A stretch of 62,961 nt of DNA, filler included, from an uncultured bacterium (GTDB lineage: Bacteria > B130-G9), in the NCBI GenBank assembly GCA_965372715.1. It is 7 parts of 7 records of this genome, joined end to end, with 100 filler letters (N's around TTAATTAATTAA, not from the genome) between each part and the next. Parts side by side here need not be neighbours in the genome. Positions count along the whole stretch, not along the records: positions 40,301 to 49,307 come from CBDVDH010000086.1; 6 more parts are not named here. One strand, 5' to 3'. Positions within the stretch are counted from its first letter, which is position 1; every line of letters begins with the position of its first letter. Below the pieces are notes generated by a model. The model saw only the letters and a program-made list of their open reading frames with translations. It was not told the origin of the DNA and did no database searches. Below are positions 10,208 through 58,452 of the stretch, piece by piece. Both the position numbers and the translations under genes were made by a program.

Positions 10208-10217
10208 TAGGGCAGAT

Positions 10218-32074: not shown

Positions 32075-32314
32075 ATGCCCAGAGCATTGGCGGAAATGAC
32101 AGAAGCGGAATTCGAGGCCCTTGTCCAGAAGACGGTTGATGAACGACTGAGTGTGTGGCTCACCCAGTTGATGGATGCCGTAATCGGCGCCGATGAGGAA
32201 GACACGGCAGTATTCAAGCCAGAGTTCGCCGAGTCGCTCAACAGATCAATCGCCCAAGCTGAGGCAGGAGACCTGGCAGACCTCCGATCACTTCGTCCGC
32301 GCCATGGTGACTAA
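32075..32314 (+). CDS. Small hypothetical protein, antitoxin-like
   Basis: 79 aa, AAGGAG RBS, acidic. C-terminal FKPEFAESLNRSIAQAEAG resembles type II antitoxin tails (inference). Confidence 0.5.
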   Translation: MPRALAEMTEAEFEALVQKTVDERLSVWLTQLMDAVIGADEEDTAVFKPEFAESLNRSIAQAEAGDLADLRSLRPRHGD

Positions 32315-32339
32315 GTCCATTATGGGTCGACCTGTAATC

Positions 32340-33038: not shown

Positions 33039-33254
33039 GTTTAAGCGCGGAGTTCGCGAGGAATTAAGCAGGCAGTATTGCGCTGATCCAGAGGCGTTCC
33101 TTCGCAAGTTCAAAGAGCAATACGGCCATTTGCAGAAACAGAAGCGCGGCGCAAACACGAGGTGAGGCAGCATGTTCTGGGCTGGACGCGGCGTTCTTGG
33201 CTTATCTCTGGAGACGTGACGTCGAGTCCTGCTTGACACGGAGGCTATGGTTCA

Positions 33255-33581
33255 GTGGCTGACATCGATGATCTGATCTTGCGTCGGGCACGTGCGGCGC
33301 TTTCGGTGATCGCCAGGCAGGCTCGCGTCCGGGCGGCCTTTCTCTTCGGGTCGTATGTCGAGGGCAAGCCGGACGAATTCAGCGACATAGACATCGCAGC
33401 TTTCGTTGAGGGCGCCGGGCAATGGGATTTGGAGCGGCATGTGCGCGCAGGCGTCGAGGCACGGAGAGAGGTTGGCTACGACATCGAGCTGCACTTCTTT
33501 GCGGCCGAGCTCTTGGAGAACCCGCCGAAGGCGAGTTTTGCCGCCTACGTCCAGAGCCACGGGGTCCCCGTCGAAATGTGA
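33255..33581 (+). CDS. Minimal nucleotidyltransferase (MNT) domain protein
   Basis: LFGSYVEG..DEFSDIDIA motif. No HEPN partner adjacent. Confidence 0.8.
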   Translation: MADIDDLILRRARAALSVIARQARVRAAFLFGSYVEGKPDEFSDIDIAAFVEGAGQWDLERHVRAGVEARREVGYDIELHFFAAELLENPPKASFAAYVQSHGVPVEM

Positions 33582-33610
33582 GAAACGTTACGCAGCCTCA
33601 TGGAGGCACA

Positions 33611-33788
33611 GCCCGAATAATTCAAGGCCGTGACTCTCGTGGGTGTGGGACAGCCTCTTCCAGCCTGCCAAAGACAGCGTCTCGCGCGACACAATGTTCC
33701 GTATCTGCGATGCGGCAATCACTAAAAAGGCAGGCTGGAAAGCCCGCCCCACACCTCATCCCATCCGCAGTTTGTGAATAATACAGGT
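33611..33788 (-). mobile_element. 178-bp MITE (family C), copy 2
   Basis: Reverse-orientation homologue of 10030-10207, same length. Confidence 0.8.
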
Positions 33789-40200: not shown

Positions 40201-40300
40201 NNNNNNNNNNNNNNNNNNNNNNNNNNNNNNNNNNNNNNNNNNNNTTAATTAATTAANNNNNNNNNNNNNNNNNNNNNNNNNNNNNNNNNNNNNNNNNNNN
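40201..40300. other. Artificial contig linker
   Basis: N44-TTAATTAATTAA-N44. Confidence 0.99.
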
Positions 40301-40310
40301 CCTCATAAAG

Positions 40311-40357
40311 CCAGATGGCCTCAGACAATCACGTGGTGATTGTCTGAGGCCATCTGG
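40311..40357. repeat. Perfect 22-bp inverted repeat with 3-nt loop
   Basis: CCAGATGGCCTCAGACAATCAC-GTG-GTGATTGTCTGAGGCCATCTGG. Confidence 0.9.
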
Positions 40358-40427
40358 TTTAGGGATTGCGCGAGGGACACGGATTCCCCGCGTTGAAGAG
40401 GCTGTCCAATAAGTCGATTCTGGAGAT

Positions 40428-40532
40428 GTAGGGGCGTGGTCTGAGACCCGCCCGTGTATGTCAATTCGTCGAATGCTGTATTCTCGACGGGCCGATCAAT
40501 TAGAAAGGGCGGGTCTGAGACCACGCCCCTAC
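40428..40532. repeat. REPIN-like inverted doublet of REP family B
   Basis: GTAGGGGCGTGGTCTGAGACCCGCCC ... GGGCGGGTCTGAGACCACGCCCCTAC. Confidence 0.8.
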
Positions 40533-40587
40533 AAAGGCTCATCGCGAGGGACATTATCTTTGGCAGGCTGGAAAGCCCGCCCTACAG

Positions 40588-42720
40588 TCACGAGGCTCCG
40601 GCGCCGCGGAAGAGGCCTGTTGCGTATTGGGAGTTGCTGCCGTTGAAGAGGCTCTCGTTGCGGTAGCGGTCGCGGAGTTCAGCCTTCTTGCCCAGGTTCC
40701 AGCTGGAGACCTTCGTAAAATAGCCCGTGATGCGCGTGATGCCATCGACGTTCTTGCTGTGGCAGTATGGGCACTCAGCGGCGAGGCCCCGCGAGGTCTT
40801 GTTGCAGTCGTTGCAAGTCGTGAACTCCGGCGAGAAAGCTATCTGGTCGTTGTCGGTGAACTTGAAGGCCTTGACGACGAAGTTCGCAAGCGACTCCGCG
40901 CTCGGTCGCTGCTCGCCGAGCCAAAGGTGCGAGATCGCGCCCGCCTCGATCAGCGGATGAAACATCCCCTCGAGGCGCACGCGCTCGATTGGGTTCGTAA
41001 CCGAGCCTACGTCGAATAGCGTGGAGTTTGAGTAATAGACGCCGCCGTTGTTCGGGTTGCCCTTGACGACTTTTGAGGCGATTGACGGGAAGTGCTTCAG
41101 GTCGAGCCTCGCAAACCTATAGGCGGTCGATTCGGCCGGCGTCTGCTCCAGAACGAACTTCATGTTGTGCTTCTTGCTGAGTCGGTCGGTCATAATCTTC
41201 ATGTGGGCAGTAACCTGAAGGCCGAACTTCAGCGCCCGCGTCGTCTCGTGCATGTGTTCGCCCGTGTGAGCAAAGACCATATCGTCAAGGCCGACCATGC
41301 CCATCAGATATGACGCCTTTTCAAGCCGCAGATAGCTCATCCCGTCCTTCTTCATCGTCAGAAGCGCCAGCGGGCCGGTCTCGCCGAGCGCAAGCAGCTT
41401 CTCGATGAATATGCGCTTCTGCATGTGCGCCTCGGCCGCGAGTTTCATGAGCTCGGTGAGCCTCTGGAACAGCACGGTGTCGTTGCCGCCCGCCTCGTAG
41501 GCGATTCTCGGCAGATTCGTCGTTACGTTCTGAAGCGCGGAGAAACGCATCCGCCAGGGCTGCTTAGCGTCCTCGATGTCCTCCGAGGTCAACTTGAACG
41601 ACAGCCGACAGCACTCGCTGATCTTCGCCGTCTCGCCGCGATCAAATACGAAATACGTGTTGCCCATCTTGCTCGCAACATCGCAGATGTGACGCAGGAA
41701 CTTCTCGTGGCCCTCGGTCTTGAAGAACTCGTCCGTTATATGCACAAGCGGCTTGGGGAAGAAAAACGGCCGACCAGACCCATCGCCCTCCATATAGATG
41801 TCGAAGAGCGCCCACACAAATCGCTGAGCATCCTTCTCGTATTCTTTATACTTCTTGCCGGTATATTCACCGCCGGGGCCAATCGCATCGACCTCGCGGA
41901 AGTGCTTCGGGACCTCCCAATAGAGATTCAGGTCGGAGAAAATCGCCTGGCCTCCCCTCGCAACTGCTTGCTGAGAGAACTCAAATATCAATATCTGCGC
42001 CAGCTGGCGAAGCTCGTTGTCCGGCATATCGACTATGTAAGGAGCGAAGAAAAGATTCACCGCGTCCCAGCCTATCGCCCCAGCAAAATGACCCTGAAGA
42101 GCGGCCGAGAACTTCAGCACGTGCGCGAGCAGAACCTCCGGATGCTTCGCCGGCTTGGCTATCGAGAGCGCGTTGGGCAGCGACAGGCCGAACTTCTTAA
42201 CGTATTCCAACGATTGCCCGGAGCAGTAAGGACGGTCAATGAATCCAAGGTCGTGAAGATGAATGTCGCCCGAAAGATGCGCATCGGCAACCGGCTGAGA
42301 GAAGACTGTCAGGAGCGCATATTCCTTCTTGATGCTCTCCGCAAGCGTAAGATTCGTCGCCTCCGGCCCATGCGGGACGTTAGCGTTCTCCTTGTTCGGG
42401 TGCAAAATCAGCTCGTTGACATCGTAGAGCGGGACGCCGAGCCGCGTATGATAGCGCCTCGCATCCTCAAGCCCGTGCTCTATCAACTTGGAGTTGACCA
42501 TCTCGCGCACAAGAGGCGCGGTAACGACCTTGATCGATGAACGCAGAAGCTGCTCCTCGACCTCGCGACCTATCTTCTCCGCCGTGTCCGCATCGATGTC
42601 CGTCTCCCTAATGAGAGCGTTGACGATGCGCTCGCGGCTCCATTTGACGACCTCCTCGCTCGATGTGCGAACGAACATCGCGATGTCCGTCGCCTCGCCA
42701 TTAAGCGCCGCGGGGCTCAT
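40588..42720 (-). CDS. nrdD: Anaerobic (class III) ribonucleoside-triphosphate reductase
   Basis: N-terminal ATP cone, KENAN, HLSGDIHLHDL, PYC, SECCRL, TPAES, Zn site CNDC/CPYC, glycyl-radical RITGY. Start placed at ATG 42720 (alternatives 42768 and 42798). Confidence 0.95.
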   Translation of the reverse strand: MSPAALNGEATDIAMFVRTSSEEVVKWSRERIVNALIRETDIDADTAEKIGREVEEQLLRSSIKVVTAPLVREMVNSKLIEHGLEDARRYHTRLGVPLYDVNELILHPNKENANVPHGPEATNLTLAESIKKEYALLTVFSQPVADAHLSGDIHLHDLGFIDRPYCSGQSLEYVKKFGLSLPNALSIAKPAKHPEVLLAHVLKFSAALQGHFAGAIGWDAVNLFFAPYIVDMPDNELRQLAQILIFEFSQQAVARGGQAIFSDLNLYWEVPKHFREVDAIGPGGEYTGKKYKEYEKDAQRFVWALFDIYMEGDGSGRPFFFPKPLVHITDEFFKTEGHEKFLRHICDVASKMGNTYFVFDRGETAKISECCRLSFKLTSEDIEDAKQPWRMRFSALQNVTTNLPRIAYEAGGNDTVLFQRLTELMKLAAEAHMQKRIFIEKLLALGETGPLALLTMKKDGMSYLRLEKASYLMGMVGLDDMVFAHTGEHMHETTRALKFGLQVTAHMKIMTDRLSKKHNMKFVLEQTPAESTAYRFARLDLKHFPSIASKVVKGNPNNGGVYYSNSTLFDVGSVTNPIERVRLEGMFHPLIEAGAISHLWLGEQRPSAESLANFVVKAFKFTDNDQIAFSPEFTTCNDCNKTSRGLAAECPYCHSKNVDGITRITGYFTKVSSWNLGKKAELRDRYRNESLFNGSNSQYATGLFRGAGAS

Positions 42721-42843
42721 TTGCAGGTTCTCACCCCCGTAATCACGTATAATTTCTGTTCTACTCATACCTTTTCCCACATATCCCTGTGCTTCCAAAA
42801 GCCACTTTCAAGCACTTCTGCCGCCCGAATTCAGCTCCTCCAT

Positions 42844-42890
42844 CAACATTATTTAGTATGTCAAGCGATACTACATACAAGATATGGGAT
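42844..42890. promoter_or_regulatory. Tandem NrdR boxes overlapping the nrdD promoter
   Basis: CAACATTATTTAGTAT (42844-42859) and ATACAAGATATGGGAT (42875-42890) fit acaCwAtATaTwGtg and start 31 nt apart. Minus-strand TTGACA at 42859-42864 and 42892-42897. Confidence 0.7.
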
Positions 42891-43074
42891 ATGTCAAGCC
42901 TCTTCGCCGCCCAAGAATGAAACGCACTCGGGTCACGCGAGCTCCAAATATGAACCCAAAATCAACAATATAAGCCTCTACACTAAGGGCAGTATCAATC
43001 ATATAGAGCAGTATAACACATTCGCCTCGCCCTGCTATCGGGTTCCGAAGCGTCGGATGTAAAGCCTTGGTCAG

Positions 43075-43347
43075 CAAATCCGAGAGCACGCTGGCGAGAT
43101 AAAGAGCCGGTTCAATGTGCATGAACTGGGGCTTTTCGGCTCCCATGCGCGGAGCAGGGCTGACGGACGGAGCGATATAGACATCCTCGTCGGATTGAGG
43201 CAACCTACATTCGATAGCTACGTGGACCTGAAGTTTTGCCTGGAGGGCCTGTGGCAAGAGGGTGTGGACCCGGTGATTGCAGATACTCTGAAGCAAAAGC
43301 TCAAACCGCAAATAACGCGTGAAGTGATTCATGGTAAGGGGTTATGA
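43075..43347 (+). pseudogene. MNT antitoxin paralogue, probably 5'-degraded
   Basis: QIREHAGEIKSRFNVHELGLFGSHAR..SDIDILV...TLKQKLKPQITREV, colinear with 43534-43845. No convincing start codon. Confidence 0.7.
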
Positions 43348-43417
43348 GGTCTATTTGGATGATATAGTCGGAGCGGCAGACAGGTTCAACCTCAAGAAGT
43401 GGGGCAATGGGAATTGA
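43331..43417 (+). pseudogene. HepT/DUF86 N-terminal fragment
   Basis: MVRGYEVYLDDIVGAADR resembles [18 protein letters not shown] of 43829, then breaks off. Confidence 0.55.
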
Positions 43418-43544
43418 CGAGATCTTGAAGGACAAGCGCGAGAAGATACTTCGCATCGCCGCCAAGCACGGTGCACGAAATGTGGGCGTATTCGGTCCTG
43501 TCGCTCTCGTCGAAGCGGACGAGGAAAGGAACGATGAAGAGTGA
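43407..43544 (+). pseudogene. MNT N-terminal fragment (different subfamily)
   Basis: MGIDEILKDKREKILRIAAKHGARNVGVFGPVA..EADE then stop. GS motif degenerate. Confidence 0.6.
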
Positions 43545-43845
43545 AGAACTGACTTCTGATGGGATTATGGAACTCCTGTGCAAACATGCCGGCGAGATGA
43601 AGAGCCGATTCAGCGTGCGAAGGATGGGCCTTTTTGGGTCCTACTCACGACGCAAGTCGCGAGTGAAGAGTGACATAGACATCCTGGTTGAGTTGAGCGA
43701 ATCCACTTTTGACAATTATATGGACCTCAAGTTCTTTCTAGAAGAACTACTCAACAGAGAAGTTGACCTGGTGATGGCCGAGACCCTAAAGCGACGGCTT
43801 AGGCCTCGAATACTACGCGAGGTGATGTATGCCGAGGGATCATAG
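43534..43845 (+). CDS. mntA: MntA-like nucleotidyltransferase antitoxin
   Basis: ATG 43534 behind [33 protein letters not shown] and VDLV motifs. Confidence 0.88.
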
Positions 43846-44170
43846 GCTCTATCTGGAGGATATCGTTGAGGCGGCCAACAGAATACTGCGCTACACTGTC
43901 GGGATGGGCTATGACTCCTTTGCCTCGGACGATAAGACACTAGACGCGGTGGTTCGCAACCTGGAGATCATTGGTGAAGCTGCAAAAAGACTGCCTCAGA
44001 GTGCGAAACAGAGGACGCCGGATATCGAATGGCGTAAGATCGCGGGACTCAGAAACATCCTTATTCATGAGTACTTTGGCATTAGCAAGGTGATTGTCTG
44101 GGACATAGTGCAGGGCAAGGTACCTTCGCTGAAGACGGCCTGTAAGAGCCTGCTGGCGGAGGGAGACTGA
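43829..44170 (+). CDS. hepT: HepT-like (DUF86) HEPN ribonuclease toxin
   Basis: [13 protein letters not shown] and [17 protein letters not shown] (RxxxxH). Overlaps mntA. Confidence 0.92.
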
Positions 44171-44176
44171 GGGCAA

Positions 44177-44785
44177 GTGTATCAACCTGAAGTGAAACTG
44201 CTCTTCGTCGAGCGGTACTGTAATCCGGAGAACGGTTGGCTTGTGTTCGTTGACATCGACCCGGCAGAGGTGGGCAACGCGGGGGGTTGGCCCAAGACCG
44301 AAAAAGCCTGGGTGCGCAAGAACCAAATGCAGGATAGGGGGAAGAGAGCAATCAAGGGATTGGAGAAGCTCGGGGCAAAGGTTGGCGGAAGCAGAGCCAA
44401 ATGGCTCTCAGCTCTCTCCCATCAATTGGGAGCTTGTGAGGCCCCGGCGATTCCTGGCGATCGCGACATTATTGCGATCAATCCCTCCCTCATGCGGCTT
44501 GTGGTCGCGGAAGTAGAAGGCGCATCAACCGGCCAACCCGAACAGAAGATATATAAAGCTATTGGGCAGATTGTAGTAGCAGTTGGAGCGGTCGATCCAA
44601 AAGCCTTTGACGCGAGCTTTGTCGTGGCCGTGCATGGTGAACGGATGAAAAACCACTTACAGAAGGCAACGGCTCTGGAGAAGATAGGTGTTTCCGCCGT
44701 GTGCATTGAAAAGGACCGAGCGCAGGACGTATGGCTCTTCGGCAGGCGATTAAACCAATGTTGCGACGGGGCACAGGGTTGGTAA
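44177..44785 (+). CDS. Hypothetical protein, possible PD-(D/E)XK-type nuclease
   Basis: 202 aa, GAGG RBS. GDRDIIAI...VVAEVEG...YKAIGQI spacing resembles a restriction-endonuclease-like core. Confidence 0.5.
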   Translation: MYQPEVKLLFVERYCNPENGWLVFVDIDPAEVGNAGGWPKTEKAWVRKNQMQDRGKRAIKGLEKLGAKVGGSRAKWLSALSHQLGACEAPAIPGDRDIIAINPSLMRLVVAEVEGASTGQPEQKIYKAIGQIVVAVGAVDPKAFDASFVVAVHGERMKNHLQKATALEKIGVSAVCIEKDRAQDVWLFGRRLNQCCDGAQGW

Positions 44786-44873
44786 GGGCCAATGGCAGGT
44801 TACATATATCCGGTGCAAGATGGAGCTTTCATAAGCGTGCGACGGCACTGACGGGCATTGCTCCGCGGCCTTA

Positions 44874-44958
44874 CAGCTCAATACTGCAAGAACAGCTGGC
44901 CCCACTTGGTCTTTAGGGCCTCTTTGACGCGCTTTCTGCCCTTCACGTTGTGCCAGTA
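44874..44958 (-). repeat. Diverged copy 1 of the DUF362 gene 3' end
   Basis: Encodes YWHNVKGRKRVKEALKTKWGQLFLQY*, versus YWYPFKGRKRVKEALKTKWGQLFLQY* in the gene. Confidence 0.9.
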
Positions 44959-45041
44959 GCGGCCAAGTCCAGCACCGTATGAATGAGGACGGAATTGATG
45001 TAATATGCTGGGCATGAGTCTGAGAGCGGAGGTCCAGTATG

Positions 45042-45137
45042 CCCAAAGTGGATTACGACATCCTGTGGGACACCATTGCCCATAACCTCCCGGACCTTAT
45101 CACTCTACTGGATGACATCTTAGGGGAAGAGGCATAG
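45042..45137 (+). pseudogene. HepT/DUF86 C-terminal fragment
   Basis: PKVDYDILWDTIAHNLPDLITLLDDILGEEA* matches the typical DUF86 C-terminus. Confidence 0.6.
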
Positions 45138-45194
45138 TCGAGGTGCGCTAAGACAAAACCAAATGCCCCAAAAACCACGATATGTCGGGCGCGA

Positions 45195-45292
45195 CAGCTC
45201 AATACTGCTGGAACAGCTGGCCCCACTTGGTTTTGAGGGCCTCTTGGACGGGCTTTCTGCCTTTGAAGGGATACCAGTCGTGGTAGATGATT
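45195..45292 (-). repeat. Diverged copy 2 of the DUF362 gene 3' end
   Basis: About 98 nt homologous to 46237-46340, with a few substitutions and a 6-nt deletion in TACCAGTACCAG. Confidence 0.9.
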
Positions 45293-45318
45293 TGGGCAAA
45301 CCAGATCGAAAGAGCCTA

Positions 45319-45496
45319 ACCCGCATTATTCATAAACTGCGGATGCGATGAGATGTGGGGCGGGCTTTCCAGCCTGCCTATTGCAGTGATTGCTGCATCC
45401 CTCGCATGGAACACTCTGTCGGGCGAGACCCTGTCTTTGGCAGGCTGGAAAGCCTGCCCTACACCGACGAGAGTCCCGACCTTGAATTATTCGGGC
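45319..45496 (+). mobile_element. 178-bp MITE (family C), copy 3
   Basis: ACCCGCATTATTCA...TGAATTATTCGGGC, TA on both flanks. Right end overlaps the abiEi stop codon. Confidence 0.82.
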
Positions 45497-46128
45497 TAAT
45501 ACAGGAACAGCGCCTCCAGATACGGCCGAATGACTTTGCTCACGCGGCAGATGCGGGCGAATTCCATGAGCTTGTCGATACTGAAATCTCTGCGCGTTCG
45601 ACACTCCTTCAGCGCCTCAATCGCGATATCCAGGCCGATCTTATTGCGGAACTTGAAGCAGTCAGCTACTGTTTTCTCCAGACAGTAGATGCGAATGGGA
45701 ACCCCATCTATTGTGTGGGGCTCAATTCCCTCTGAAAATGCTCTACCACGAAAACAGAACACGCGAACAGGAGGATAGTCGAAAGCGGGGGACCAGGAAT
45801 CTCGCCTTACCGCCAGCTGGACTTCGTGGGGAACCTGGGTCGTTACCTCGTGGAACGCTAGGGCTGAGATCAGGCATATGACAGCATCGTGTGCCTTCCG
45901 AGCCACGGCTACAAGGTCCGGATTCCCGAGTGGGCCGATGCTTACCAGGCGGTATAGCCCCCGTGACATCCGCTCAAGCAGCCCAGCGTCTCGCATAGCA
46001 TAAAGTGTTCTTGGGTGAATGCCGAGCTCGATAGCATCCCTGGTGCGCAGCAGGCCATCCCGTCGCCGGAAGACAACCTTCGCCCTTTCGGTCTGTTTAT
46101 CGCTGTGCTTCACTTGGCGCCTTTCCAT
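45496..46128 (-). CDS. abiEi: Type IV TA antitoxin AbiEi-family transcriptional regulator
   Basis: wHTH N-terminus (LLRTRDAIELGI..LERMSRGLY), ICLISALAFH, EKTVADCF and RPYLEAL. ATG at 46128. Confidence 0.85.
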   Translation of the reverse strand: MERRQVKHSDKQTERAKVVFRRRDGLLRTRDAIELGIHPRTLYAMRDAGLLERMSRGLYRLVSIGPLGNPDLVAVARKAHDAVICLISALAFHEVTTQVPHEVQLAVRRDSWSPAFDYPPVRVFCFRGRAFSEGIEPHTIDGVPIRIYCLEKTVADCFKFRNKIGLDIAIEALKECRTRRDFSIDKLMEFARICRVSKVIRPYLEALFLY

Positions 46129-46129
46129 T

Positions 46130-46177
46130 TGGATAAAATCCTCCACACTTATCAACAAGTGTGGAGGATTCTATCCA
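46130..46177. promoter_or_regulatory. 21-bp inverted repeat, probable AbiEi autoregulatory operator
   Basis: TGGATAAAATCCTCCACACTT-N6-AAGTGTGGAGGATTCTATCCA (20/21 complementary), directly upstream of the abiEi ATG. Confidence 0.7.
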
Positions 46178-46240
46178 GTTAACAGTGGTTGTCAACCAAA
46201 CTAAAGGCCCGGAAACGACCGCGGCATCAAGAGGGGCAGC

Positions 46241-47323
46241 TTAATACTGCAAGAACAGCTGGCCCCACTTGGTTTTGAGGGCTTCTTTGACGCGCTTTCT
46301 GCCCTTGAAGGGATACCAGTACCAGTCGTGGTAGATGATTGAGGCGAGGTATGACCAGGGGGCGAGGAAGGTGCGGAGGAGGAACTTCTCCGCGAAGTGC
46401 AGGGGGCCCCAGTAGATGGCCTTTTGGCCGCGGCTGGCGAGGGTGTTTACGTCTTTCTGGAAGTGCCAGTTGACCTCGGAGACGTCCTCCCCGACGATCT
46501 CTATCTCTTTGAAGTCGCCGCAGCCCAGGCCCTTCTCGTGGGCTATGCGGATGAACCTGAGCTCCAAGGGGTCGAGGCCCATCATGTGGGCGGAGACGGC
46601 GTCAATAGCGACGAGGTCTGCGCTCGCGAGAATGTAGTCCTTTACGTAAGGGATCATGCACCTGGGCCCCGGGCCGTCGCCGGCGAATGTACCGTCCATC
46701 ACTGCGAAGAGGCCGGGGTGTATCTCCTTTTGAATCGTCAGAAGGTCAACGAGCGTCTCGTGTATGACCGAATGCGTCCAGTGCCGCTTCTCGTGCAAAA
46801 GGCCGCCGAAGGCGTTCTTCATGGCTCCGGTCATTGTGGTGAAGATGTGCGTCTTGACCGTCGGGAGCTGGATGATATTGCTGCCGATGAGGCGCTTGGG
46901 TATCTGGATGCCGGTTCTGAAGATGTCGTGCAGCGCTAGCATCTCGCCTTTTGGGTGGTATGTTACCCAGTCCTCGTTTTCGTAGAGGTGGATGTTGCGG
47001 ATGCCATATTTCTCCAGAACGGGCTTGTGTTTGTTCGCGACCTCGCCCTTCTTGGCCGAGACCACGACCGTGCGGTTGTGGGCGCCCCAGAGCGATTCGG
47101 CGGGGTAGCCATCGTCCAGCATCGTCTTGATAACGCCCTCGAGCTGCCAGGGCGTCGTTGAACACGCAGGATAGAAGACGTGCCAGGAGATGTTTATCTT
47201 AAGGGCCGTTTCTTTGTCTTTGGGCAGATGACTCTGGTAGTTGGCCATCCGCATGAGCTTGCCGTAGTCATCGAGAACTGTCTCAGGTTCCGTCTTTAGA
47301 ACGGCCACTATTGATTTCGCCAT
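46241..47323 (-). CDS. DUF362 domain protein
   Basis: LKINISW, STTPWQLEG, LPTVKTH, TGAMKNAFG, DG..AGDGPGP and DLVAIDAV motifs. AAGGAGAGG RBS. Confidence 0.85.
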   Translation of the reverse strand: MAKSIVAVLKTEPETVLDDYGKLMRMANYQSHLPKDKETALKINISWHVFYPACSTTPWQLEGVIKTMLDDGYPAESLWGAHNRTVVVSAKKGEVANKHKPVLEKYGIRNIHLYENEDWVTYHPKGEMLALHDIFRTGIQIPKRLIGSNIIQLPTVKTHIFTTMTGAMKNAFGGLLHEKRHWTHSVIHETLVDLLTIQKEIHPGLFAVMDGTFAGDGPGPRCMIPYVKDYILASADLVAIDAVSAHMMGLDPLELRFIRIAHEKGLGCGDFKEIEIVGEDVSEVNWHFQKDVNTLASRGQKAIYWGPLHFAEKFLLRTFLAPWSYLASIIYHDWYWYPFKGRKRVKEALKTKWGQLFLQY

Positions 47324-47343
47324 GTTACCTCTCCTTTCGACGG

Positions 47344-47916
47344 CTACCAGTGTATCGTCTTTGCGAATTCGAACAGGCCGCCAGCCTCAATCATCGATAG
47401 CAATACGGGTGATATCGGCCCGCACTTGATGGTATTCTTGTCCTTCCCTAGCGCCACTTCTCCGCTCTTCAGGTCGATCGAGACCGGTGAGCCGTCCTGC
47501 AAGGCCTCAAGGAGAGCTCTTGCGGCCGGTTGAGCGTTCTCAAACGACTGCACTGCCATGCCAGAGTTGATCGCATTCCGGAAGTATATCGGCGCAAACG
47601 ACTGAGCCATAATCGCCTTTATACCAAGTGCGCCGAAGCAATCAACCGCCTGTTGACGCGACGAGCCGGCCCCGAAATTGGTCCCAACGACAAGCACCTG
47701 GTAATTCGACGCCACTTTCGGGAAATGCTCCCATCCGGGCAAGTTGCCGAATGCAAACTGGCCCATCTGCGAGACGTCCGTAACGTGAAGATGAGCGTTG
47801 TGAAATATCATGTCGGTGTCGATGTTATCAATCAAGGCGCCTTTTGGGTCCTTTATGAAACAGGCGCTGCCAGTTATTGCCTGAACGCCTGCCGGTTGGG
47901 AATCTGGTTTAGTCAT
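47344..47916 (-). CDS. leuD: 3-isopropylmalate dehydratase/homoaconitase-type small subunit
   Basis: DNIDTDMI, NFGAGSSRQQA and SFAPIYFRNAIN motifs. Substrate not established. Confidence 0.8.
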   Translation of the reverse strand: MTKPDSQPAGVQAITGSACFIKDPKGALIDNIDTDMIFHNAHLHVTDVSQMGQFAFGNLPGWEHFPKVASNYQVLVVGTNFGAGSSRQQAVDCFGALGIKAIMAQSFAPIYFRNAINSGMAVQSFENAQPAARALLEALQDGSPVSIDLKSGEVALGKDKNTIKCGPISPVLLSMIEAGGLFEFAKTIHW

Positions 47917-47970
47917 GCTGTCATCTCTATCTCTTTCAATCTAGGGCAGGCTGGAAAGCCCGCCCCACAC

Positions 47971-49215
47971 TCACTCTGGCACTCGAATCTCACCATAAAT
48001 GGCAGAATAGGCCGCGACGACGGGGCTTGCAAGGTAGGTCTCTCCTGCTCCCTGCTTGCCGGGGAAATTACGATTGCCGGTGCTTATCTGGACCTCGCCC
48101 TTGCCGGTCATGCCGACCTGTCCGGCCGCACAGCCTGCGCAGCCCTGGCTTAAGATTATCGCCCCGGCGTCGTATAGCTTCGCCAGTATCCCTTCCTTCA
48201 AGAGCCGTCCGTAGATTTCCTTTGTAGCGGGGGCAATCCTGAACATAACGCCGCTTTTCACCCGTCGGCCCTCAAGAATACTCGCCGCAACACTGATGTC
48301 CTCGAATCGCCCATTGGTGCAAGAACCGATCAGGATCGAATCTATTTGCGTTCCGGCCACCTCTGAAACGTTAACGACCGAACACGGATTCCCCGGCAGC
48401 GCTATCTTCGGCTGAAGACTCGACACGTCAATCTCCAACTTCTTGACGCAATTCGCGTCCGCGTCGGGCGAAGCGAGCACGTCCGGGCGATGACTGTCCA
48501 CAATCTTTAATTCGACCAGCACTTCATCATTAGGAGCAATCAGCCCCGCAACGCCCCCCGCCTCCGTCACCAGGCTTGAAAGCGTAATCCGGCCGGAGAG
48601 GTTGAGCGCATCTACTGTCTCGCCGCAGAAGTCCACAGCCATACCCAGGGCGCCAGCTGGCCCCAAGTCTCCCAGAAAGCGCAGCGCCACGTCCTTTGCT
48701 GTTACGGGATAATCAAAGGGGCCGGTTATCTTCACACGTATCGTCTCGGGGACCTTAAACCAGACCTTTCGAGTCTTGAAAGCAAACGCTACGTCTCGGT
48801 CGCCCATTCCGAGGCCCAGCGCGCCTATTGCCCCGACGAGGTTCAGATGGCTGTCGGTTCCGACGACCGTTGAGGCCGGAATACAGTGCCCCTCGTCAAC
48901 AATCACGTGCGAACCGATACCGCTATCAACGTCGTAAACCCGTATTCCGTGCCTCCTGGCGAACGTGCGGATTACGTGCTGATTGTTCGCGTAGCCGACC
49001 GTATTGGCGGGCGCCTGACAGTCGAACGTGAAAAGCGTGGCCGATGGATCACCGACCGGGCTCTCTGGATACTCGCGCTCCAGGTGACCTACGACGTTTG
49101 CGCCGCCGAAATCCCGCGCGCATGCGAGGTCTAGCGACAGCCAGACGACGTCGCCGGCCTTCGCGTCGCCCGACGTGTGCGCCGAGACTATCCTCTCAAC
49201 GAGTGTTTTCGCCAA
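47971..49215 (-). CDS. leuC: 3-isopropylmalate dehydratase/homoaconitase-type large subunit
   Basis: TTG start 49215 behind AGGAGG. GTDSH, IGSCTNGR, GCAGC, STGNRNF and YLASP motifs. Substrate not established. Confidence 0.82.
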   Translation of the reverse strand: MAKTLVERIVSAHTSGDAKAGDVVWLSLDLACARDFGGANVVGHLEREYPESPVGDPSATLFTFDCQAPANTVGYANNQHVIRTFARRHGIRVYDVDSGIGSHVIVDEGHCIPASTVVGTDSHLNLVGAIGALGLGMGDRDVAFAFKTRKVWFKVPETIRVKITGPFDYPVTAKDVALRFLGDLGPAGALGMAVDFCGETVDALNLSGRITLSSLVTEAGGVAGLIAPNDEVLVELKIVDSHRPDVLASPDADANCVKKLEIDVSSLQPKIALPGNPCSVVNVSEVAGTQIDSILIGSCTNGRFEDISVAASILEGRRVKSGVMFRIAPATKEIYGRLLKEGILAKLYDAGAIILSQGCAGCAAGQVGMTGKGEVQISTGNRNFPGKQGAGETYLASPVVAAYSAIYGEIRVPE

Positions 49216-49307
49216 AGATCCTGGTCTCCCTCCTATCGCTTGCCCCCCACCGATTGATGGTCGCATAAGATGCCTCGTATCCGCAGGGATTCATGTAGGC
49301 GGGCGGG

Positions 49308-49407
49308 NNNNNNNNNNNNNNNNNNNNNNNNNNNNNNNNNNNNNNNNNNNNTTAATTAATTAANNNNNNNNNNNNNNNNNNNNNNNNNNNNNNNNNNNNN
49401 NNNNNNN
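49308..49407. other. Artificial contig linker
   Basis: N44-TTAATTAATTAA-N44. Confidence 0.99.
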
Positions 49408-51621: not shown

Positions 51622-51953
51622 CCCAGTAATCAGATTGAAGGAGCATCCGGCTCTATGCATGCCCTATGGAGTGCGGCGGCTCGACGCCGCTTTCTTTGGT
51701 GGTGGCTTGACACCACCTTCTGATGGACGGCTCCTTCGACCTCGCAGATAGCGATTCGGAGATACGGACGTTAATCGATGCTAACCGGCGCCGCGTCAGG
51801 CCGCGGCAAGTGAAAGCGGTGCCGGGTCACCGCACTCCAAAGCACCGAACGGGTGCAAGCCACAAACCGACCGCGGTCGCAATGATCACCCGTTGGCAGG
51901 AGCAGAACGAGTTGACCGCACGAGGTCTGACGTCGTCAATCTGATTTTTCGGG
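51622..51953. mobile_element. MITE-like element family E (~330 bp) with internal REP-like doublet
   Basis: Ends CCCAGTAATCAGATTGA / TCAATCTGATTTTTCGGG. Internal inverted hairpins GGAGTGCGGCGGCTCGACGCCGCTTT and AAAGCGGTGCCGGGTCACCGCACTCC. Confidence 0.6.
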
Positions 51954-52070: not shown

Positions 52071-55000
52071 ATGACTAGGAGGGTTTCGATGAAGACCAAC
52101 CAAAGCGCTTTGCCAGCCAGTTTTCTTCTCATCACCTTTTTGCTTCTGGGGGCTTTCCCAACGCCCTCAGGCGGAGCTTTTGAGCCGGACCTTTCGGCCT
52201 GCCTCGTCATGCGGCAGCCAGATGGCTCGTTGCCGGACGCGATTGACGACGATTCCCTAATTGTCCTCGACTACGGTTCGTTTGTGCTCGTCAACCTTCG
52301 ACCGTCGGCCATCGAGCAGCTGGTCGCCTCAGGAGTAGTTGTCGAGGACCTGTCTGCACGGACACTTGTCAGACTGGGAGACTACGTGTTCGATCCCGTC
52401 GATGGACCCAGCTTCTTGCCCGCTGCCCTGCGGCTTAGCGAGGAAGAAAGGGCAACCTCGCAATACGTCATTGTGCAGTGGTATGGGCCGGTTAGGCGCG
52501 ACTTTCTGGAATCGCTCGAGGCGGCCGGAGCAAGATGCATCCAGTACATTCCCGATTTCGGGATGCTGGTCAGGCGCGGGCCAACACCGTTGCAATCGCT
52601 TCTGGAGTTTGATTTCGTGCGCGCCGTTACGCCTTACGAGCCGGCCTTTAAGGTCGAACGCGTTCTCTTAGAGCCGCTCGGGGTCCAGTTGCTTGGCGTT
52701 CATCTTGACAAGGTCCCTGACTACGAACGCGTGCTTGGATTGCTGAGCGCGTTCGGTGAGATAACACAAGACCCCGTCATCACTGCCTCGAGGATCATTG
52801 TCCGCCTGCGAGCCGACACAGCTAACGTGCCCAAGATCGCCTCAATCCCTGAGGTTCTGGTCGTTGGGCTCTACACCGAGCCTCAGAAGCACGACGAGAT
52901 TCAGGACCAGATCATGTCGATGGAGCTTGGCGATAACGGCTTGCCCACGGTGGGCTATCGGGAGTTCCTCGAATACGTGGGGGTTACCGGCGCGGACGTG
53001 CCGGTTGCCGTGTGCGACACGGGCGTTGACACGGGGACGGACTACGATTCGATGCATCTTGACCTGAGAGGTCGGGTCCTCGCAGTCATCGACTATGCGG
53101 GCAATTCCGGAAGAGACTACGACGGCCACGGGACACATTGTGCGGGGATCATAGCGGGCAACGGGGCGAGCGAAGTCAGCGACAGCAATGACTTCGAGGT
53201 CGGCCTGGGCATCGCGCCCGAGGCGCTGATCGTTACCCAGAACTACTTGGCGGATTGGTATGACGTGGCGATTGTTGATCTACTTGGTGCGGCCTACTCT
53301 GCTGGGGCGCAGGTTCACAGCAATAGCTGGGGCGACGGCTATTACTCGGAGCGAGGCTACACAACCACGTGCATCGAGTGGGACGAGGCAATGCTGGACG
53401 TGAAGCCGAGCGAGAACGGGACGCAGCGGCTTATCGTGTTCAAATCCGCCGGCAACGACGGGAGCTCTGGGCTTTCCTCACCCGGCGAGGCGAAGAACAC
53501 AATCGCCATCGGCGCGACCGAGAATTATCGACCTGAGAAGGGCTGTAGCAGCATCAACAGCCTGGCCGATTTCAGCTCGCGCGGGATGTGTGAGGATGGC
53601 CGTGTGAAGCCTGATCTGTGCTGCCCCGGCGCATGCATTATCTCTGCGCTCTCATCAGAATCGTATCCGGGATGGGCTTACGGCAGTTTCGGCAGCTATC
53701 ACGAGTATTGCTCCGGGACGAGCATGTCTTGCCCGGCGGCGGCCGGGACCGCAGCGCTGCTCGTGGAGAAGGTGCGGAATGAGACCGAGAATCTCCCGTC
53801 GCCGGCGCTTGTGCGGGCTTGGATGATCGCGACGGCGTTTGACATGCCGGACCCGTCAAACAAGCCAATCCCGAACAATGACGAGGGTTGGGGCCGTATC
53901 GACCTTTCTGCGCTGCTCGATCCTGATGCGGACATCCTTTACTACGACGAGGAGGTGGTGTTTACCGAGACAGGCGAAGACCATATCATGACGGTCTCTG
54001 TTGGCTCGATGACGGAGCCTTTCAGGGTTGCGCTGGCGTGGCTCGACGCACCCGGGGCACTCCACGCGCAGCCAGCCCTCGTCAACGACCTCGACCTGAT
54101 CGTGACCGGCGCCGATTGGACGGAATACCTGGGCAACAACTTCTCAGATAGCTTCTCCGAGCCCGGTGGGCAGCCAGACCGACGAAACAACGTCGAATGC
54201 GTGTTTGTTGAGGCGCCTCAAGGACAATACCACATTCGCGTGGTGGCTCACCAGATAACGAGCGACACGACGCCGGGTACAAGCGGCATTCAGCAGCCGT
54301 TTGCGCTATTTGTGAGCAACGCGCTCGACATCAGTTCGAAGGCGTGGATTCGCTTTTCGGAGAGGGCGTATCGCTGCGACGCCGAGGTGGAGGTTACGCT
54401 AGCGGACCTCGACCTCGCTGAGGCCTCGAGTGTTACTGTTATGGCTGCATCGACATACGCGCCGGATGAGTGGCTCGAGGTGTCGCTCTTCCCGAACGAG
54501 GAGCATCCGGGCATGTTCTCCGGGACCTTCAATCTAACGCCCTCCGACGAGTTTGAACACGACGCCGTTCGGATAGCGCACGATTATTTCGTCGGCGCGC
54601 TTTATATCGACGAGGACGATGGGATGGGCGGACGCAGCGTAGAGCTGATATGCTATGCGCAGGCCGACTGTCAGGGGCCGATACTTCAGAGCATCGAGAT
54701 CACCCAGTCCGAGTCCGGACGTGTCCACTTCTTCATTGGGGCCAGCGAGCCCTGTTCAGCTAAGATCGGTTACTGGGACGCAACGGGCCACGTCAATTAC
54801 ATCCAGAGTCCGCCGAATCAACGCAAGGAGGAGCACGACATAGACATCGTGGACCTTTACCCATGCTCAAGCTATTGGGCGGCTATCGAGCTTACCGATG
54901 CCTACGGGAACTCCACAACCTGGGACAACGAGGGCCAATTCTTCACATTCGAGACGAAATACTATGGCACAAAAACTTACACCGGTGGGGAGATTGGTGA

Positions 55001-58000
55001 TGAGGACGGTTGGTATTCCAGCGCCTCAAACGGCGACCCATGGCGCAAGAGCACTCGAAGGGCTTATTCAGGGGATGCCGCTTGGTATTGCGGCAGCGAG
55101 GCGTCCGGCAACTACGGCAACAACTGGGACACGAGCCTCATCTCGGACGAGTTCGTCGTGACACCTGGCGCCAAGCTTCGGTTCGTGGTTCGTTCCGACA
55201 CAGAGAGCAGCTATGATTACCTTAAGGTCTATGTTCGGCATGACGGTCGAGACACACAGCTCTCGGGGATGTCATTCTCAGGCAGCTCGGGCGGATGGCA
55301 GATAAAGGAGAGATCTCTTCAGGTCTATGAGGATGAAACCGTCAGAATAAAGTTCCGGTTCACCTCGGACTCTTCAGTGACTTATGAGGGCAGCTACATC
55401 GACGAGTGCATGGTTATCGCGGAGGGGGATTGCGCGTCGGGCATCCTGCTGACGGACAAGGACGGTTACACCTGCTCGCAGACCGTTCAGGTAACGCTGC
55501 TTGACAGTAACTTAGGGCAGGACCCCTCGACGGCAGAAGAGATAAGCATCAGATTGGGGAAGTTCCCGTCTGCTTTTGGGGTGGACCTCGCGCTGACGGA
55601 GGTCGCGCCCGACTCTCCCCGATTCTCAGGCGAAGTGCCGCTCTCGGCCGACGGGGCGCCCGGAACGCTGCCGGTCAGCCACGACGACCAGCTCTGGTTC
55701 GCTTACACCGATCCATATCCCTCCGATACCCAAGGCGAGACTGTCCTTATCACGGTTTATATAGACTGTGAGGCGCCTGTCATTACTAGTTATCAGAGCG
55801 GTTGCTTGAGCCCCGAGGTCGGCGTCGTTCGGTTCACTACGGACACCCCGAGTCGGGCGCATCTGCATTTTCTTGGCGCGGAGGACGCGGTGGTCATGCA
55901 GGACAGCGAAGCCCTTTCCACGGAGCACGAGATCACCATCACTGGCCTTGAGGAATGCACTGAGTATCAGTTTTATCTCGAAATGTGGGACGAGGTCGGC
56001 AACTATCGATTGATGGATAACGAGGGGCTCTATTACGCGTTTGAGACCCCCAGGGAACGTGTGGCCCTGAAGGACGACTGCGAGCAGGGCGAGGGCGACT
56101 GGGGGCACTACTCAAACTACGGCGCCGACCAGTGGCATCTCTCGAGCCGGCGGTCATGTTCCGGTTCTTTCTCTTGGTTCTGCGGCAGCGATGACGGGAA
56201 CTACGGGGACAACATGGAGTGCATATTGGCCCTGGACCCCCTGGAATGGCTGCCCGGTTCAACCTTGACATTTCAGACCTTCTACTCGCTCGAGTCGGGC
56301 TACGATTACGGTTACGTCGAGGTCTATAACCCAGAGACATCCTCGTGGCGAACGCTGGAGCAGATCAACGGCTCGTCAGGCGACTGGGCGACCTTATCGA
56401 TCGATCTTCCCGACTACGAGGAGCCTTCAGCGCTACGTTTCAGAATGAAGACCGATTCGTACACAGTCTATGAAGGTTGGTTCATTGATGACATCGCTAT
56501 CAAAGGACTGTGGGATTGCCACTCGGGAACGCTTCTGCTCGGTCGGCGGACAGTCGGGTGCACGTGCACGCAGCTCCAAATCGAGCTCGTTGACCTGGAC
56601 CTGAACACAGACCCCGGCCGAGTCGAGACGATCGACGTCACGGTCTCGTCAGCCGAGACGGGCGATTCGGTTACGACGACGCTCAGCGAAATGGACACCG
56701 ATAGCTCGAGATTCACCGGCGCTGTCTTCGTGACTGACGAGGACAAAGACGGGGCGGCCGATACCATCCAAGTGACGGACGCAGACAGCGTGTCTGTCAG
56801 CTATTGGGACGAGATATATGGGCCTGAAAAGCAACCGCAGATGGTCGTTGAGGACGTATCGACTGACTGCGTAAGGCCCGAGATTCTAGATTTCGACGTG
56901 GTCCCAATCGGGGCGGCCGACGCGTTAGCGTCGTGCACGATCTCGAGAGCGGTCGAGTGCGTGTTCAGCTATGAATCGGTGGGTTCGGGACTAAACGTCA
57001 ACGTAGCCGGAGGCGGCCCAAAAGAGCGGTTCTGTATATTGGTTAGCGATCTCGACAAGTGTGAGGAGTATCATTTCACACTCGAGTTGGTTGACACGGT
57101 CGGCAATCACGTCTCGGTCGATTGCGACTCGCCGGAGTATTTCTTCACGGCCGGATACCCCTGGGTCGAATACTCAACGGGCTTCGGAGACCCAGAGGGC
57201 TGGGCCACAGGCTCACTGAAACCCATCTATCGCCCCGAAGAGGACGTCTGGGAGTGGAGGGAGTTCGGGGGCGCCGATGACGAGGCCGGCTGCTTCTATG
57301 CTGAGATACCGGCCGATGTCGAGTCGGTCGATGCAGTCCTAGTCTCGCCTCCAGTGTGGGCATTGGGCGCCATGACGGTCTCTTTCTCCGAAAAACACTC
57401 ATCCGGTAGTATTGATCTGGTGGTCGAGGCGGCAGTCCTTCCGCATAGTGAGTGGGTCGATATCACGCCTTTTGACGTAAGCCATCTCCCCGGCAACACA
57501 TGGCACGATGTCGCGACCGTCTTCTCCACCAACTCCGAGAAGTGCAGATACCGCATCAGGGTGCAGTCGGGGCCGGGCGCCGCCTCCGCGCACGTTTGCA
57601 TAGACAGTTTTTCGCTTACGAACGACATCGGGTGCGAACCCAGACTCGACATTTCCTGTAACGCTTACGAATACAGGGTCAACAGCACAATCAAGATGGA
57701 CTTGCGCGCAAGTCTAGGCAATCTGACAGGCGAGTATTTCTTGACCGCGGCCGCCATCTCCTCGAAGGGGTATCATTTCTATTACCCCAACTGGTCGCCG
57801 CTAGTCAGTCTCGTCCCACTCGATTTCACCAAAGAGGGGCCTCTGACAATGACGCTCGTGGACCATACGATCGAGACACTGGCGGACGCCATTGACCTTC
57901 AAGGGTATTGGCTTGTGGAAGGAACGCTCTACGACGCCTCGGGCAACCCCGTAAGCGCCGCAACGCAAAAGGGATTTCTGGTGATACCGCAGGTCGATCT

Positions 58001-58352: not shown

Positions 58353-58452
58353 NNNNNNNNNNNNNNNNNNNNNNNNNNNNNNNNNNNNNNNNNNNNTTAA
58401 TTAATTAANNNNNNNNNNNNNNNNNNNNNNNNNNNNNNNNNNNNNNNNNNNN
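58353..58452. other. Artificial contig linker
   Basis: N44-TTAATTAATTAA-N44. Confidence 0.99.

Follow-up and report, generated by a model that had tools for sequence, protein, structure and literature searches.

How do toxin-antitoxin genes and other small defence cassettes enter chromosomes in which no mobile-element genes are visible? For islets that consist of toxin-antitoxin genes only and lack mobile-element genes, spread by recombination at flanking core genes has been proposed (PMC13617665). The locus analysed here bears on this question. It lies in a stretch of 62,961 nucleotides from the genome of an uncultured bacterium, referred to below as the window, in which the 3' end of a conserved protein-coding gene recurs between toxin-antitoxin genes. 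As cassettes came in, the end of this gene was exchanged more than once, probably through ordinary recombination and not through a new dedicated machine.

Tail copies and cargo in the window

The anchor of the array is a full-length DUF362-family gene of 360 codons (46241..47323, minus strand; Pfam PF04015, E 3e-23). Genes for the small and large subunits of an aconitase-family protein lie upstream of it (47344..49266, minus strand) and form a conserved left-hand context that is syntenic in four related genomes (L001, L002, L004 and L006). Among the best 120 of 8000 scored homologues, the DUF362 proteins were 73-100% identical and came from several phyla. The tail was conserved across these 120 as well, and is not a variable toxin domain. 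A sequence search returned no relative of solved structure. The anchor gene is enzyme-like and shares its Pfam clan with LarA (PMC11770544).

The original prediction had noted that the end of this gene recurs twice downstream in direct orientation, and the repeat analysis agreed. An 84-nt direct-repeat family (D1) occupies 46237-46320 in the gene tail, 45195-45278 and 44874-44957, with 85-92% identity and all copies oriented the same way as the gene. A 30-nt degenerate tail pattern matched three times in the window and in 0 of 100 shuffled sequences. The recurring segment comprises codons ~326-360 in the working gene (46237..46345, minus strand), codons ~325-360 in a first orphan, c2 (45195..45303, minus strand), and codons ~335-360 in a second orphan, c3 (44874..44958, minus strand). 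In the window, each of the three copies ends with the stop codon followed by GCTG.

Over the last 22 codons, stop included, c3 differs from the gene by four changes (GAA/GAG, CTC/CTA, AAA/AAG and TAA/TGA), all of which leave the reading unchanged. Beyond these codons c3 reads YWHNV and the gene YWYPF, as had been reported. The NV variant is present in full-length homologues (YWYNVKGRR in P0004, and WYNVIGR in P0039, P0042 and P0074), which fits the earlier view of c3 as the tail of a different functional allele. The other orphan, c2, is decaying, as had also been noted: 6 nt are deleted in frame, a further such deletion probably lies upstream, and the replacements R>P, K>Q and L>Q are present. 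Once two 6-nt deletions are allowed, its similarity to the gene reaches about 45303. A c2 ending at the same base as the c3 of the closest relative could therefore be ruled out. The sequence flanking the gene tail and that flanking c2 share a weak similarity over ~47 nt (z 3.9).

The arrangement of cargo around these tails, described beforehand as abiEi and a miniature inverted-repeat element (MITE), a HEPN fragment and an MNT/HEPN cluster, was borne out by Pfam, PADLOC and repeat evidence. Between the gene and c2 lies abiEi, the antitoxin/regulator gene of an AbiE system (45496..46158, minus strand; PADLOC AbiEi, E 4e-77 over the full profile). It is headed by a promoter-like site, TTGACA-16-TAGAAT (11/12 matches in a promoter scan), together with a 21-nt inverted repeat (I4, 95% complementary), a putative operator (46130..46195, minus strand); the same arrangement recurs in the closest relative, L004. 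AbiE is a type IV pair, of which L004 has both genes and the window abiEi alone. Homology to L004 stops at the end of abiEi, where the partner abiEii is missing, so the AbiE system of the window is a remnant.

The MITE follows at 45321..45498. It is short (~178 nt) and non-coding, its ends are terminal inverted repeats, and the 4-bp target TTAG is duplicated on either side of it. The element is present in three copies in the window, one 92% identical at 10031-10208 and one cut by the window end at 62912-62961. We considered whether it had caused the deletion of abiEii; its own TTAG duplication indicates a simple insertion beside the junction.

Between c2 and c3 lies a piece of a HepT (HEPN) toxin gene that codes for its C-terminal end (45039..45137, plus strand; Pfam HepT-like, E 0.0036, positions 96-119 of 120). 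Its Pfam score falls under the family cut-off, but the DNA is 87% identical to the end of the L004 HepT gene, and the fragment is the residue of a HepT/MNT cassette. Beyond c3, a run of MNT, HepT and a third ORF reads towards the orphan tail. A minimal nucleotidyltransferase gene (43471-43845; Pfam NTP_transf_2, E 1e-13) and a HEPN RNase gene (43829-44170; HepT-like, E 3e-29), adjacent on the plus strand, constitute a type VII toxin-antitoxin pair; scores against the NCBIfam MntA/HepT equivalogs were below their cut-offs, so the pair at 43471..44170 is assigned to the broad family only. The last gene of the run encodes 202 amino acids (44177..44785, plus strand). No family could be assigned to it, as it had no match in Pfam, NCBIfam, PADLOC or PHROGs, and its nearest named Atlas clusters, XisH (0.89) and Mrr_cat (0.87), are leads only. 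A truncated second MNT gene precedes the run (43117..43347, plus strand); it matches positions 18-83 of the 93-position Pfam Polbeta profile (E 2e-7).

Fuller arrays and remnants in related genomes

The array in the window is real and not an assembly artefact, since L004, whose DUF362 gene is 90% identical at the DNA level, carries the same array in fuller form. Its order is gene, abiEi, abiEii, c2 (about 61 codons), HepT, MNT and c3 (32 codons). AbiEii is complete (profile positions 3-297 of 299), c2 begins about 6 nt past its stop codon, and the HepT/MNT cassette is intact (HepT 3608-3886, MNT 3938-4360). The cassettes are thus bare operons with very tight junctions on both sides, and from tail to tail the units measure about 0.8-1.9 kb. 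The window copy of c2 with its flank is orthologous to L004 3449-3697 (87% identical), and L004 3698-4233 has no counterpart in the window. Set against L004, the window version is a decayed array from which abiEii and most of the HepT/MNT cassette were deleted and into which the MITE was inserted.

Further tails occur in other relatives. L034 has a 56-codon orphan tail followed by the same HepT/MNT cassette, and L001 and L002 have decayed tail remnants, that of L002 being marginal (2 of 300 shuffles reach its score). The cargo between tails is of three types: abiE, HepT/MNT, and an unnamed remnant in L001 and L002. Aligning the DUF362 loci of relatives, the check that had been suggested for this locus, therefore revealed both tail duplication and variation of the cargo, and supports the proposal of a hot spot at which cargo bordered by tail copies is exchanged. 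The claim of at least two successive events fared less uniformly. The array on which it was based stands, but the events do not belong to the recent past of this genome, as the array is common to L004.

Extra tails were restricted to one clade (tree support 97/99), and none of 27 distant DUF362 loci had a second tail (z at most 3.1). The clade was sampled by six genomes, one known from a protein only, and the tree does not settle the branching among four of them. All genomes are fragmentary metagenome-assembled genomes, and flanks were surveyed over at most 10 kb. The clade is uncultured, and its sole phylum-named member, L002, is labelled Candidatus Coatesbacteria.

Among short database proteins containing the tail there were 35 matches, most of which represent the gene itself, either truncated or read from an internal start. 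In five the N-terminus was unrelated, and the boundary fell at codon 263, 267, 275, 281 or 298. The one with boundary 298, P0121, is 90% identical, is coded on a separate 33.5-kb contig and is the sole short tail protein clearly of this clade. The other four come without genomic context and were therefore not counted as orphans.

Allelic origin and boundaries of the orphan tails

In all three comparisons of orphan and working tails, synonymous changes outnumbered non-synonymous ones (4:0 in the window, 10:2-4 in L004 and 11:3 between L006 and L034), together about 25 to 5-7. Since the differences are almost only synonymous, the orphan tails come from other functional alleles. As a rough expectation, decay after duplication within a genome would have given mostly non-synonymous changes.

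The cargo has a history of its own. Between the window and L004, dS was 0.45 for DUF362 and 0.28 for the aconitase small subunit, but 1.5 for abiEi. The dN of abiEi was 0.19-0.25 in all 6 pairs, which places the abiEi of the window no nearer to that of L004 than to those of L001 or L002. The abiEi tree is incongruent with the DUF362 tree; abiEi alleles were replaced independently of the host gene. A mosaic signal was also found at c3. The copies of the window and L004 are 100% identical over 53 nt, diverge about 13 nt before the stop codon, and are followed by different cargo, which marks a crossover inside a tail.

The right-hand boundary of the tails varies. The stop codon plus 4 nt, noted earlier as part of the recurring segment, is not a conserved att-like boundary: instead of GCTG, the stop is followed by TGTG in the L004 gene tail, GGGG in the third L004 copy and GTGG in the L034 orphan. 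The left edge, in contrast, lies at codons ~296-304 in five orphans from three contexts (c2 of L004, P0121, L034, the decayed copy of L001 and the remnant of L002). The exception is c3, which begins at codon 329 in L004 and at about 333-335 in the window. Compared for a shared left junction, the sequences upstream of the L034 orphan and of the L004 c2 aligned with a score of 26 (shuffles 18 ± 2.9, maximum 29). Because the left boundary recurs near codon 300, a site-specific mechanism stays in contention.

Recombination, integrases and the growth of the array

Our leading explanation, which we hold tentatively and with slightly less than even confidence, is serial displacement of the tail, in which related lineages exchange DNA by host recombination and tail copies act as homology arms. 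With every replacement of the 3' end of the highly conserved gene by DNA from a related lineage, a small toxin-antitoxin operon would come in, and the previous tail would be left as an orphan just past the new cassette. The array would grow in this way into gene, cassette, old tail, older cassette and older tail. Host recombination alone could suffice, with a first crossover in the conserved gene and a second that would be either a non-homologous join (homology-facilitated illegitimate recombination) or a crossover inside an existing tail copy. A cassette between the gene and a tail copy would then act like a natural knock-in construct, and double homologous recombination among relatives may pass on, replace, add or loop out cassettes, with the addictive toxin-antitoxin genes as the survivors. 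The comparisons show the array itself, its presence and variation in relatives, the origin of the orphan tails from other alleles, the mismatch between cassette and host gene trees, and the decay in this genome; the enzymology, RecA-type recombination in which no dedicated recombinase takes part, and the sequence of events are inferred. Most of the data are explicable by host recombination. The confinement of extra tails to one clade is expected if spread needs homology at the DNA level, and the bare cassettes and the lack of a recombinase at the loci surveyed also speak for it. The recurring left boundary counts against host recombination, as random illegitimate joins do not predict it, and the model must suppose a boundary that was established a single time and has been carried along with the module ever since. 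The presence of several kinds of unrelated cargo also calls for several non-homologous events, for which a site-specific system would be simpler. The tightness of both junctions of each cassette is a further point against it, and in fragmentary genomes with flanks of at most 10 kb a recombinase could lie elsewhere or outside the surveyed sequence.

A precedent for the proposed process is found in Rhs, CDI and T6SS loci, for whose orphan arrays sequential displacement of the homology-facilitated illegitimate recombination type has been proposed (PMC5361080). There, as here, displaced 3' pieces, each with a conserved stretch retained, trail a full-length gene, the newest module lies beside the gene, alleles from other strains are involved and no integrase is present; a combination of homologous and homology-facilitated illegitimate recombination, as we propose, is the mechanism put forward in that source (PMC5361080). 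The serial orphan 3' fragments from foreign alleles by which C-terminal displacement is recognised are found at the DUF362 locus. The parts differ in kind. In the Rhs, CDI and T6SS loci it is the variable toxin tip that is displaced, and the retained cargo consists of immunity genes, whereas here a conserved non-toxin tail is displaced, the cargo consists of self-contained toxin-antitoxin operons with their own promoter, and the anchor is the conserved DUF362 gene. The toxin-antitoxin islets cited at the outset are likewise small, hold toxin-antitoxin genes only and lack mobile-element genes (PMC13617665). Duplicated core-gene ends between cassettes are not mentioned in the excerpt of PMC13617665 used here; at the DUF362 locus the core-gene tail is copied between cassettes.

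An unlikely alternative is that at least two integrase-bearing elements inserted in tandem at the 3' end of DUF362, each with a substitute tail, and were later stripped to their toxin-antitoxin genes. A regenerated target with a displaced fragment in direct orientation is a hallmark of genomic islands (PMC4383910), and three copies are present in the window as in L004. At icd of Escherichia coli, the incoming DNA of e14 or phage 21 brings a substitute 3' end, and e14 is flanked by icd and the pseudogene icdC, whose differences are mostly synonymous or conservative (PMC13626634); the synonymous-biased tail differences described above match this pattern. With e14 and with tandem islands at tRNA genes the old end persists distally as a direct-repeat pseudogene (PMC13626634, PMC4383910), as it does here, and a fixed crossover core would give an orphan left edge that recurs near codon 300. 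Such elements are nevertheless 15 kb or larger and carry an integrase, whereas the L004 units are of about 0.8-1.9 kb and hold toxin-antitoxin genes only. The absence of a visible integrase, noted earlier, was confirmed for the 16 + 39 window ORFs scanned for recombinase Pfam families, and a wider search for a linked recombinase was equally negative in 39 ORFs of the sequenced flanks of four close loci (16 in L004; 23 in L001, L002 and L034) and in 104 ORFs within 5 kb downstream of the gene at 25 distant loci. No integrase family, IntI included, was found in the window or the flanks of related loci. Annotation of the window and of the four close loci likewise recognised neither phage nor conjugation genes. 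One ORF matches a PHROG of unknown function. Stripping would also have required deletions that stopped within about 6 nt of the abiEii stop codon and equally tightly around HepT/MNT. The tail, examined as a possible mimic of a phage or plasmid attachment site, had no match in 50,697 phage and 72,556 plasmid records, mostly from cultured hosts. The variable right-hand boundary speaks against such elements too. We further dismissed the idea that the DUF362 end serves as an integration target in phyla generally: despite its 73-77% conservation among them, 0 of 27 distant loci had an extra tail and 0 of 104 downstream ORFs encoded a recombinase.

Clearly less probable still is a system of non-autonomous cassettes, in which a circle of a substitute tail (~190 nt) and a toxin-antitoxin operon would insert near codon ~298 by means of a recombinase encoded elsewhere, in a logic akin to that of integron cassettes or Xer-dependent modules. 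Minimal cassettes of varied content that each have a tail copy at their border, a left boundary found repeatedly, the lack of a recombinase in cis and the movement of cassette alleles independently of the host gene would all suit such a system. No candidate recombinase was seen within the 63 kb of this genome, however, and the left edge of c3 and the right boundary depart from a fixed site. The folding of the tails is ordinary, with single-strand fold z of -0.3 to -1.1 against shuffles as a measure of general folding rather than of an attC model, and no inverted-repeat core was seen. Inspection by eye for a Xer/dif-like or palindromic core found nothing convincing save a CAGCTG palindrome and GGCC repeats. 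Moreover, once one module exists, homologous recombination between tails of 85-94% identity would mimic every feature. Recombinase-free modules spreading as natural knock-in constructs are possible as a weaker form of this reading. With no recombinase at the loci surveyed, no match to the tail in the phage and plasmid collections and no attC-like fold, the earlier suggestion of an integrative element or a new acquisition system is not supported.

Integron arrays grow in order as small units are inserted close to the promoter and displace the older ones distally; toxin-antitoxin cassettes are common in them. The order of the DUF362 array resembles theirs, but IntI, attI and attC-like folded sites are lacking and the repeat is a gene tail. 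The integron comparison has also been drawn for displacement arrays (PMC5361080).

Tandem duplication of the 3' part of the gene within one genome, followed by drift and unrelated insertions, is very improbable: the repeats are direct and close together, as unequal crossing-over can produce, but the synonymous bias, the unrelated cargo between copies (abiE in one interval, HepT/MNT in the other) and the incongruence of the abiEi alleles with the host gene all argue against it. A strain-chimeric contig is hardly credible even for an assembly as fragmented as this one, in which short contigs of about 4.5-10 kb are joined by linkers, given three copies that differ by 8-15% in unique flanks, the same part order with orthologous flanks of 81-87% identity in the separately deposited L004 and L034 records, and the same boundary on the contig of P0121.

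Within one uncultured clade, the locus provides a tangible series that can be compared from genome to genome, in which orphan tails record successive arrivals, losses and replacements of toxin-antitoxin cassettes. If host recombination alone is at work, a conserved gene end would serve as a portable homology arm by which a cassette can pass between relatives. Should a recombinase take part, the locus would represent a new kind of cassette system, integron-like, with the end of a protein-coding gene as its attachment site. Either way, the boundary recurring near codon 300 is a precise and testable feature.

The repeated DUF362 gene end

Artificial linkers (10817-10916, 21210-21309, 30716-30815, 40201-40300, 49308-49407 and 58353-58452; each 44 N, TTAATTAATTAA, 44 N) separate the seven contigs of the window, and features may not be read across them. 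The locus under study occupies the fifth contig, 40301-49307 (9007 bp). Its minus strand carries the genes for the large (47971-49266) and small (47344-47916) subunits of an aconitase-family enzyme, the DUF362 gene (46241-47323, 360 aa), abiEi (45496-46158) and, past a MITE at 45321-45498, two orphan copies of the DUF362 gene tail, c2 (45195-45303) and c3 (44874-44958). On the plus strand, opposite to DUF362, a HepT C-terminal fragment (45039-45137) lies between the two copies, and a 202-aa ORF, HepT, MNT and a truncated MNT (43117-44785) lie beyond c3. The same contig holds nrdD, the anaerobic ribonucleotide reductase gene (40588-42798).

The DUF362 protein is unusually conserved, with 73-100% identity in the best 120 homologues listed of 8000 scored, among which Nitrospirota, Aminicenantes, Planctomycetota and other phyla are named. 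A repeat search of the window found two further copies of the final 84 nt of the gene region at 85-92% identity, and a 30-nt tail pattern matched three times in the window and in none of 100 shuffles, confirming the original prediction that this 3' end recurs downstream. No other gene end is repeated in this way in the 63 kb of the window. Four changes separate c3 from the last 22 codons of the gene, all of which keep the reading; beyond these codons c3 reads YWHNV, and the NV form is present in full-length homologues, e.g. the database protein P0004. Copy c2 is decaying: it has deletions that keep the frame and substitutions at conserved residues. Single-strand folding of the tail copies was not unusual.

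The MITE family (about 178 nt, terminal inverted repeats CCCGyATTATTCA...) has two full copies, 92% identical, at 10031-10208 and 45321-45498, and a third cut by the window end (62912-62961). Three isolated copies of its inner hairpin motif are also present (33729, 40562 and 47945); none of the 34 related loci has this motif. Different contigs of the window share dispersed repeats at 10218-10292 and 51790-51864 (93% identical) and at 10300-10381 and 60548-60629 (80% identical). Two contigs carry, at their right-hand ends, a 40-nt repeat (21170-21209 and 49253-49292; 98% identical), perhaps an assembly-breaking one; one copy lies where the gene for the aconitase large subunit begins. The 202-aa ORF (44177-44785, plus strand, after MNT-HepT) had no family match in four libraries; among named Atlas clusters, XisH (0.89) and Mrr_cat (0.87) come closest, pointing tentatively to a PD-(D/E)xK nuclease fold. 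Other contigs hold the 3' third of a bacterial 23S rRNA (model positions 2046-2912) with 5S rRNA at a contig start (30895-31946), a 2068-aa protein with subtilase S8 and MAM-like domains (52071-58277, plus strand), and defence-like genes at 32193-33781 and 24701-25924 (Nmad2, MNT at 33255-33581, and a DUF4143/AAA_14 ATPase).

The array in related loci

Scanning one genome per species yielded 34 loci, represented by MAG contigs with flanks of up to 10 kb. Extra tails were restricted to the closest clade, which comprises the window and the loci L001, L002 (labelled Candidatus Coatesbacteria), L004 and L006 and is supported (97/99), the branching among the four members besides L002 being unresolved. 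A second tail was absent from 27 of 27 more distant loci (z at most 3.1), and querying these with each locus's own tail gave no match below E 0.01.

L004, whose DUF362 protein is 93% identical to that of the window (gene 90% at the DNA level), reads in order gene, abiEi, complete abiEii, c2 (about 61 codons), HepT, MNT, c3 (32 codons) and then different cargo. At the position of the window's 202-aa ORF it carries an unrelated 302-aa ORF (phrog_29694). Alignment of the window with L004 spans the gene and abiEi and resumes at c2, so that the window's array is an eroded version: it has lost abiEii, the left-hand portion of c2 and roughly 536 nt of the HepT/MNT cassette, and the MITE, with its own TTAG duplication, adjoins the first junction. 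L034 and the gene-bearing contig L006 belong to one MAG; L034 has a 56-codon orphan followed by the same HepT/MNT cassette as L004.

A sensitive protein-level scan placed a strongly decayed tail between gene and abiEi in L001 (8303-8416, just upstream of abiEi), with a score of 62 against 24 ± 4 for shuffles, 0 of 500 of which reached it. L002 has a marginal 11-residue remnant between the same genes (around 11770-11805; reached by 2 of 300 shuffles); both remnants start near codon 300. Another orphan, P0121, a database protein on a further 33.5-kb contig, has its boundary at codon 298. These comparisons show that the array is not an artefact and predates this genome.

Other defence genes near DUF362 include RAMP genes in L001 (13568-16158), a family typical of type III CRISPR-Cas, and an HD-CE/HATPase protein in L002 (13062-15362). 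In L027, a Planctomycetales MAG, an AbiEii-like ORF (10001-10567) directly follows the DUF362 gene.

Divergence of tails and cargo

Orphan and working tails within one genome differ mostly synonymously (synonymous to non-synonymous, 10 to 2-4 in L004, 11:3 in L006/L034 and 4:0 in the window). Since an unselected copy drifting after internal duplication would be expected to show a non-synonymous majority, the two tails must have accumulated their differences while each belonged to a working gene of a different lineage. Orphans are closer to their own genome's gene than to the same-position orphan of another genome; that of L034 differs at 15 positions from the gene of L006 and at 26 from c2 of L004.

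The dS values separating the window from L004 (aconitase small subunit, 0.28; DUF362, 0.45; distal MNT gene, 0.18; abiEi, 1.5) show that the region is a mosaic. For abiEi, dN was 0.19-0.25 in all six pairs among four genomes, so replacement of the abiE cassette has been independent of the gene that hosts it. Window and L004 share 53 nt of identical c3 sequence; their copies differ in the last 13 nt or so and are followed by unrelated cargo, a break that marks a crossover inside the tail. The varying cargo in relatives, the mostly synonymous tail differences and the independent abiE replacement together support the proposed tail-replacement hot spot.

Serial displacement and its possible mechanism

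Serial displacement is common to all readings: arriving DNA would carry a substitute tail and a toxin-antitoxin operon, shifting the previous tail distally. The sequences do not demonstrate the suggested integrative, att-based or new acquisition system. Integrase, resolvase and transposase families turned up neither in 55 ORFs of the window, nor in 39 ORFs of L001, L002, L004 and L034, nor, for 25 distant loci, in the 104 ORFs lying up to 5 kb downstream of DUF362 (L015, L017, L018 and L025, with too little downstream sequence, were excluded). The DUF362 tail had no match in phage and plasmid collections, and neither L004 nor L034 retains the 'stop + GCTG' edge of the window's copies.

We tentatively favour host recombination alone. 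A first crossover would fall inside the conserved DUF362 gene and a second at a non-homologous join or, once a tail copy is present, within that copy. Both flanks of a cassette between gene and tail copy would then be collinear with the intact gene of a naive relative, so that ordinary double recombination could insert or replace a cassette or add a further unit, and recombination between the direct repeats could delete one. Host recombination would account for the lack of recombinases, for cassettes that are bare operons, for the confinement to one clade, and for both the mosaic divergence and the crossover within c3. It agrees with proposals for orphan arrays of T6SS, Rhs and CDI (PMC5361080) and for islets of toxin-antitoxin genes only (PMC13617665).

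Against it stand the left edge of the orphans, which lies at codons ~296-304 in five of them across three contexts, a recurrence not predicted by random joins, and the bracketing of each of several unrelated cargo types by tails. Both observations are compatible with a fixed crossover core. Its source could be decayed elements of the e14/icd type that once bore an integrase (PMC13626634), an explanation we consider rather unlikely; mobilisation of the cassettes by a recombinase whose gene lies elsewhere, which would explain the same two observations, is more improbable still.

Searches of the open-access literature found no paper on such an array for DUF362, by title or abstract, and, among the entries listed, no description of one for C-terminal displacement with toxin-antitoxin genes or orphans. 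We rate displacement arrays and displaced target fragments as already known, and the pairing of a conserved non-toxin gene end with toxin-antitoxin cargo as what is new here.
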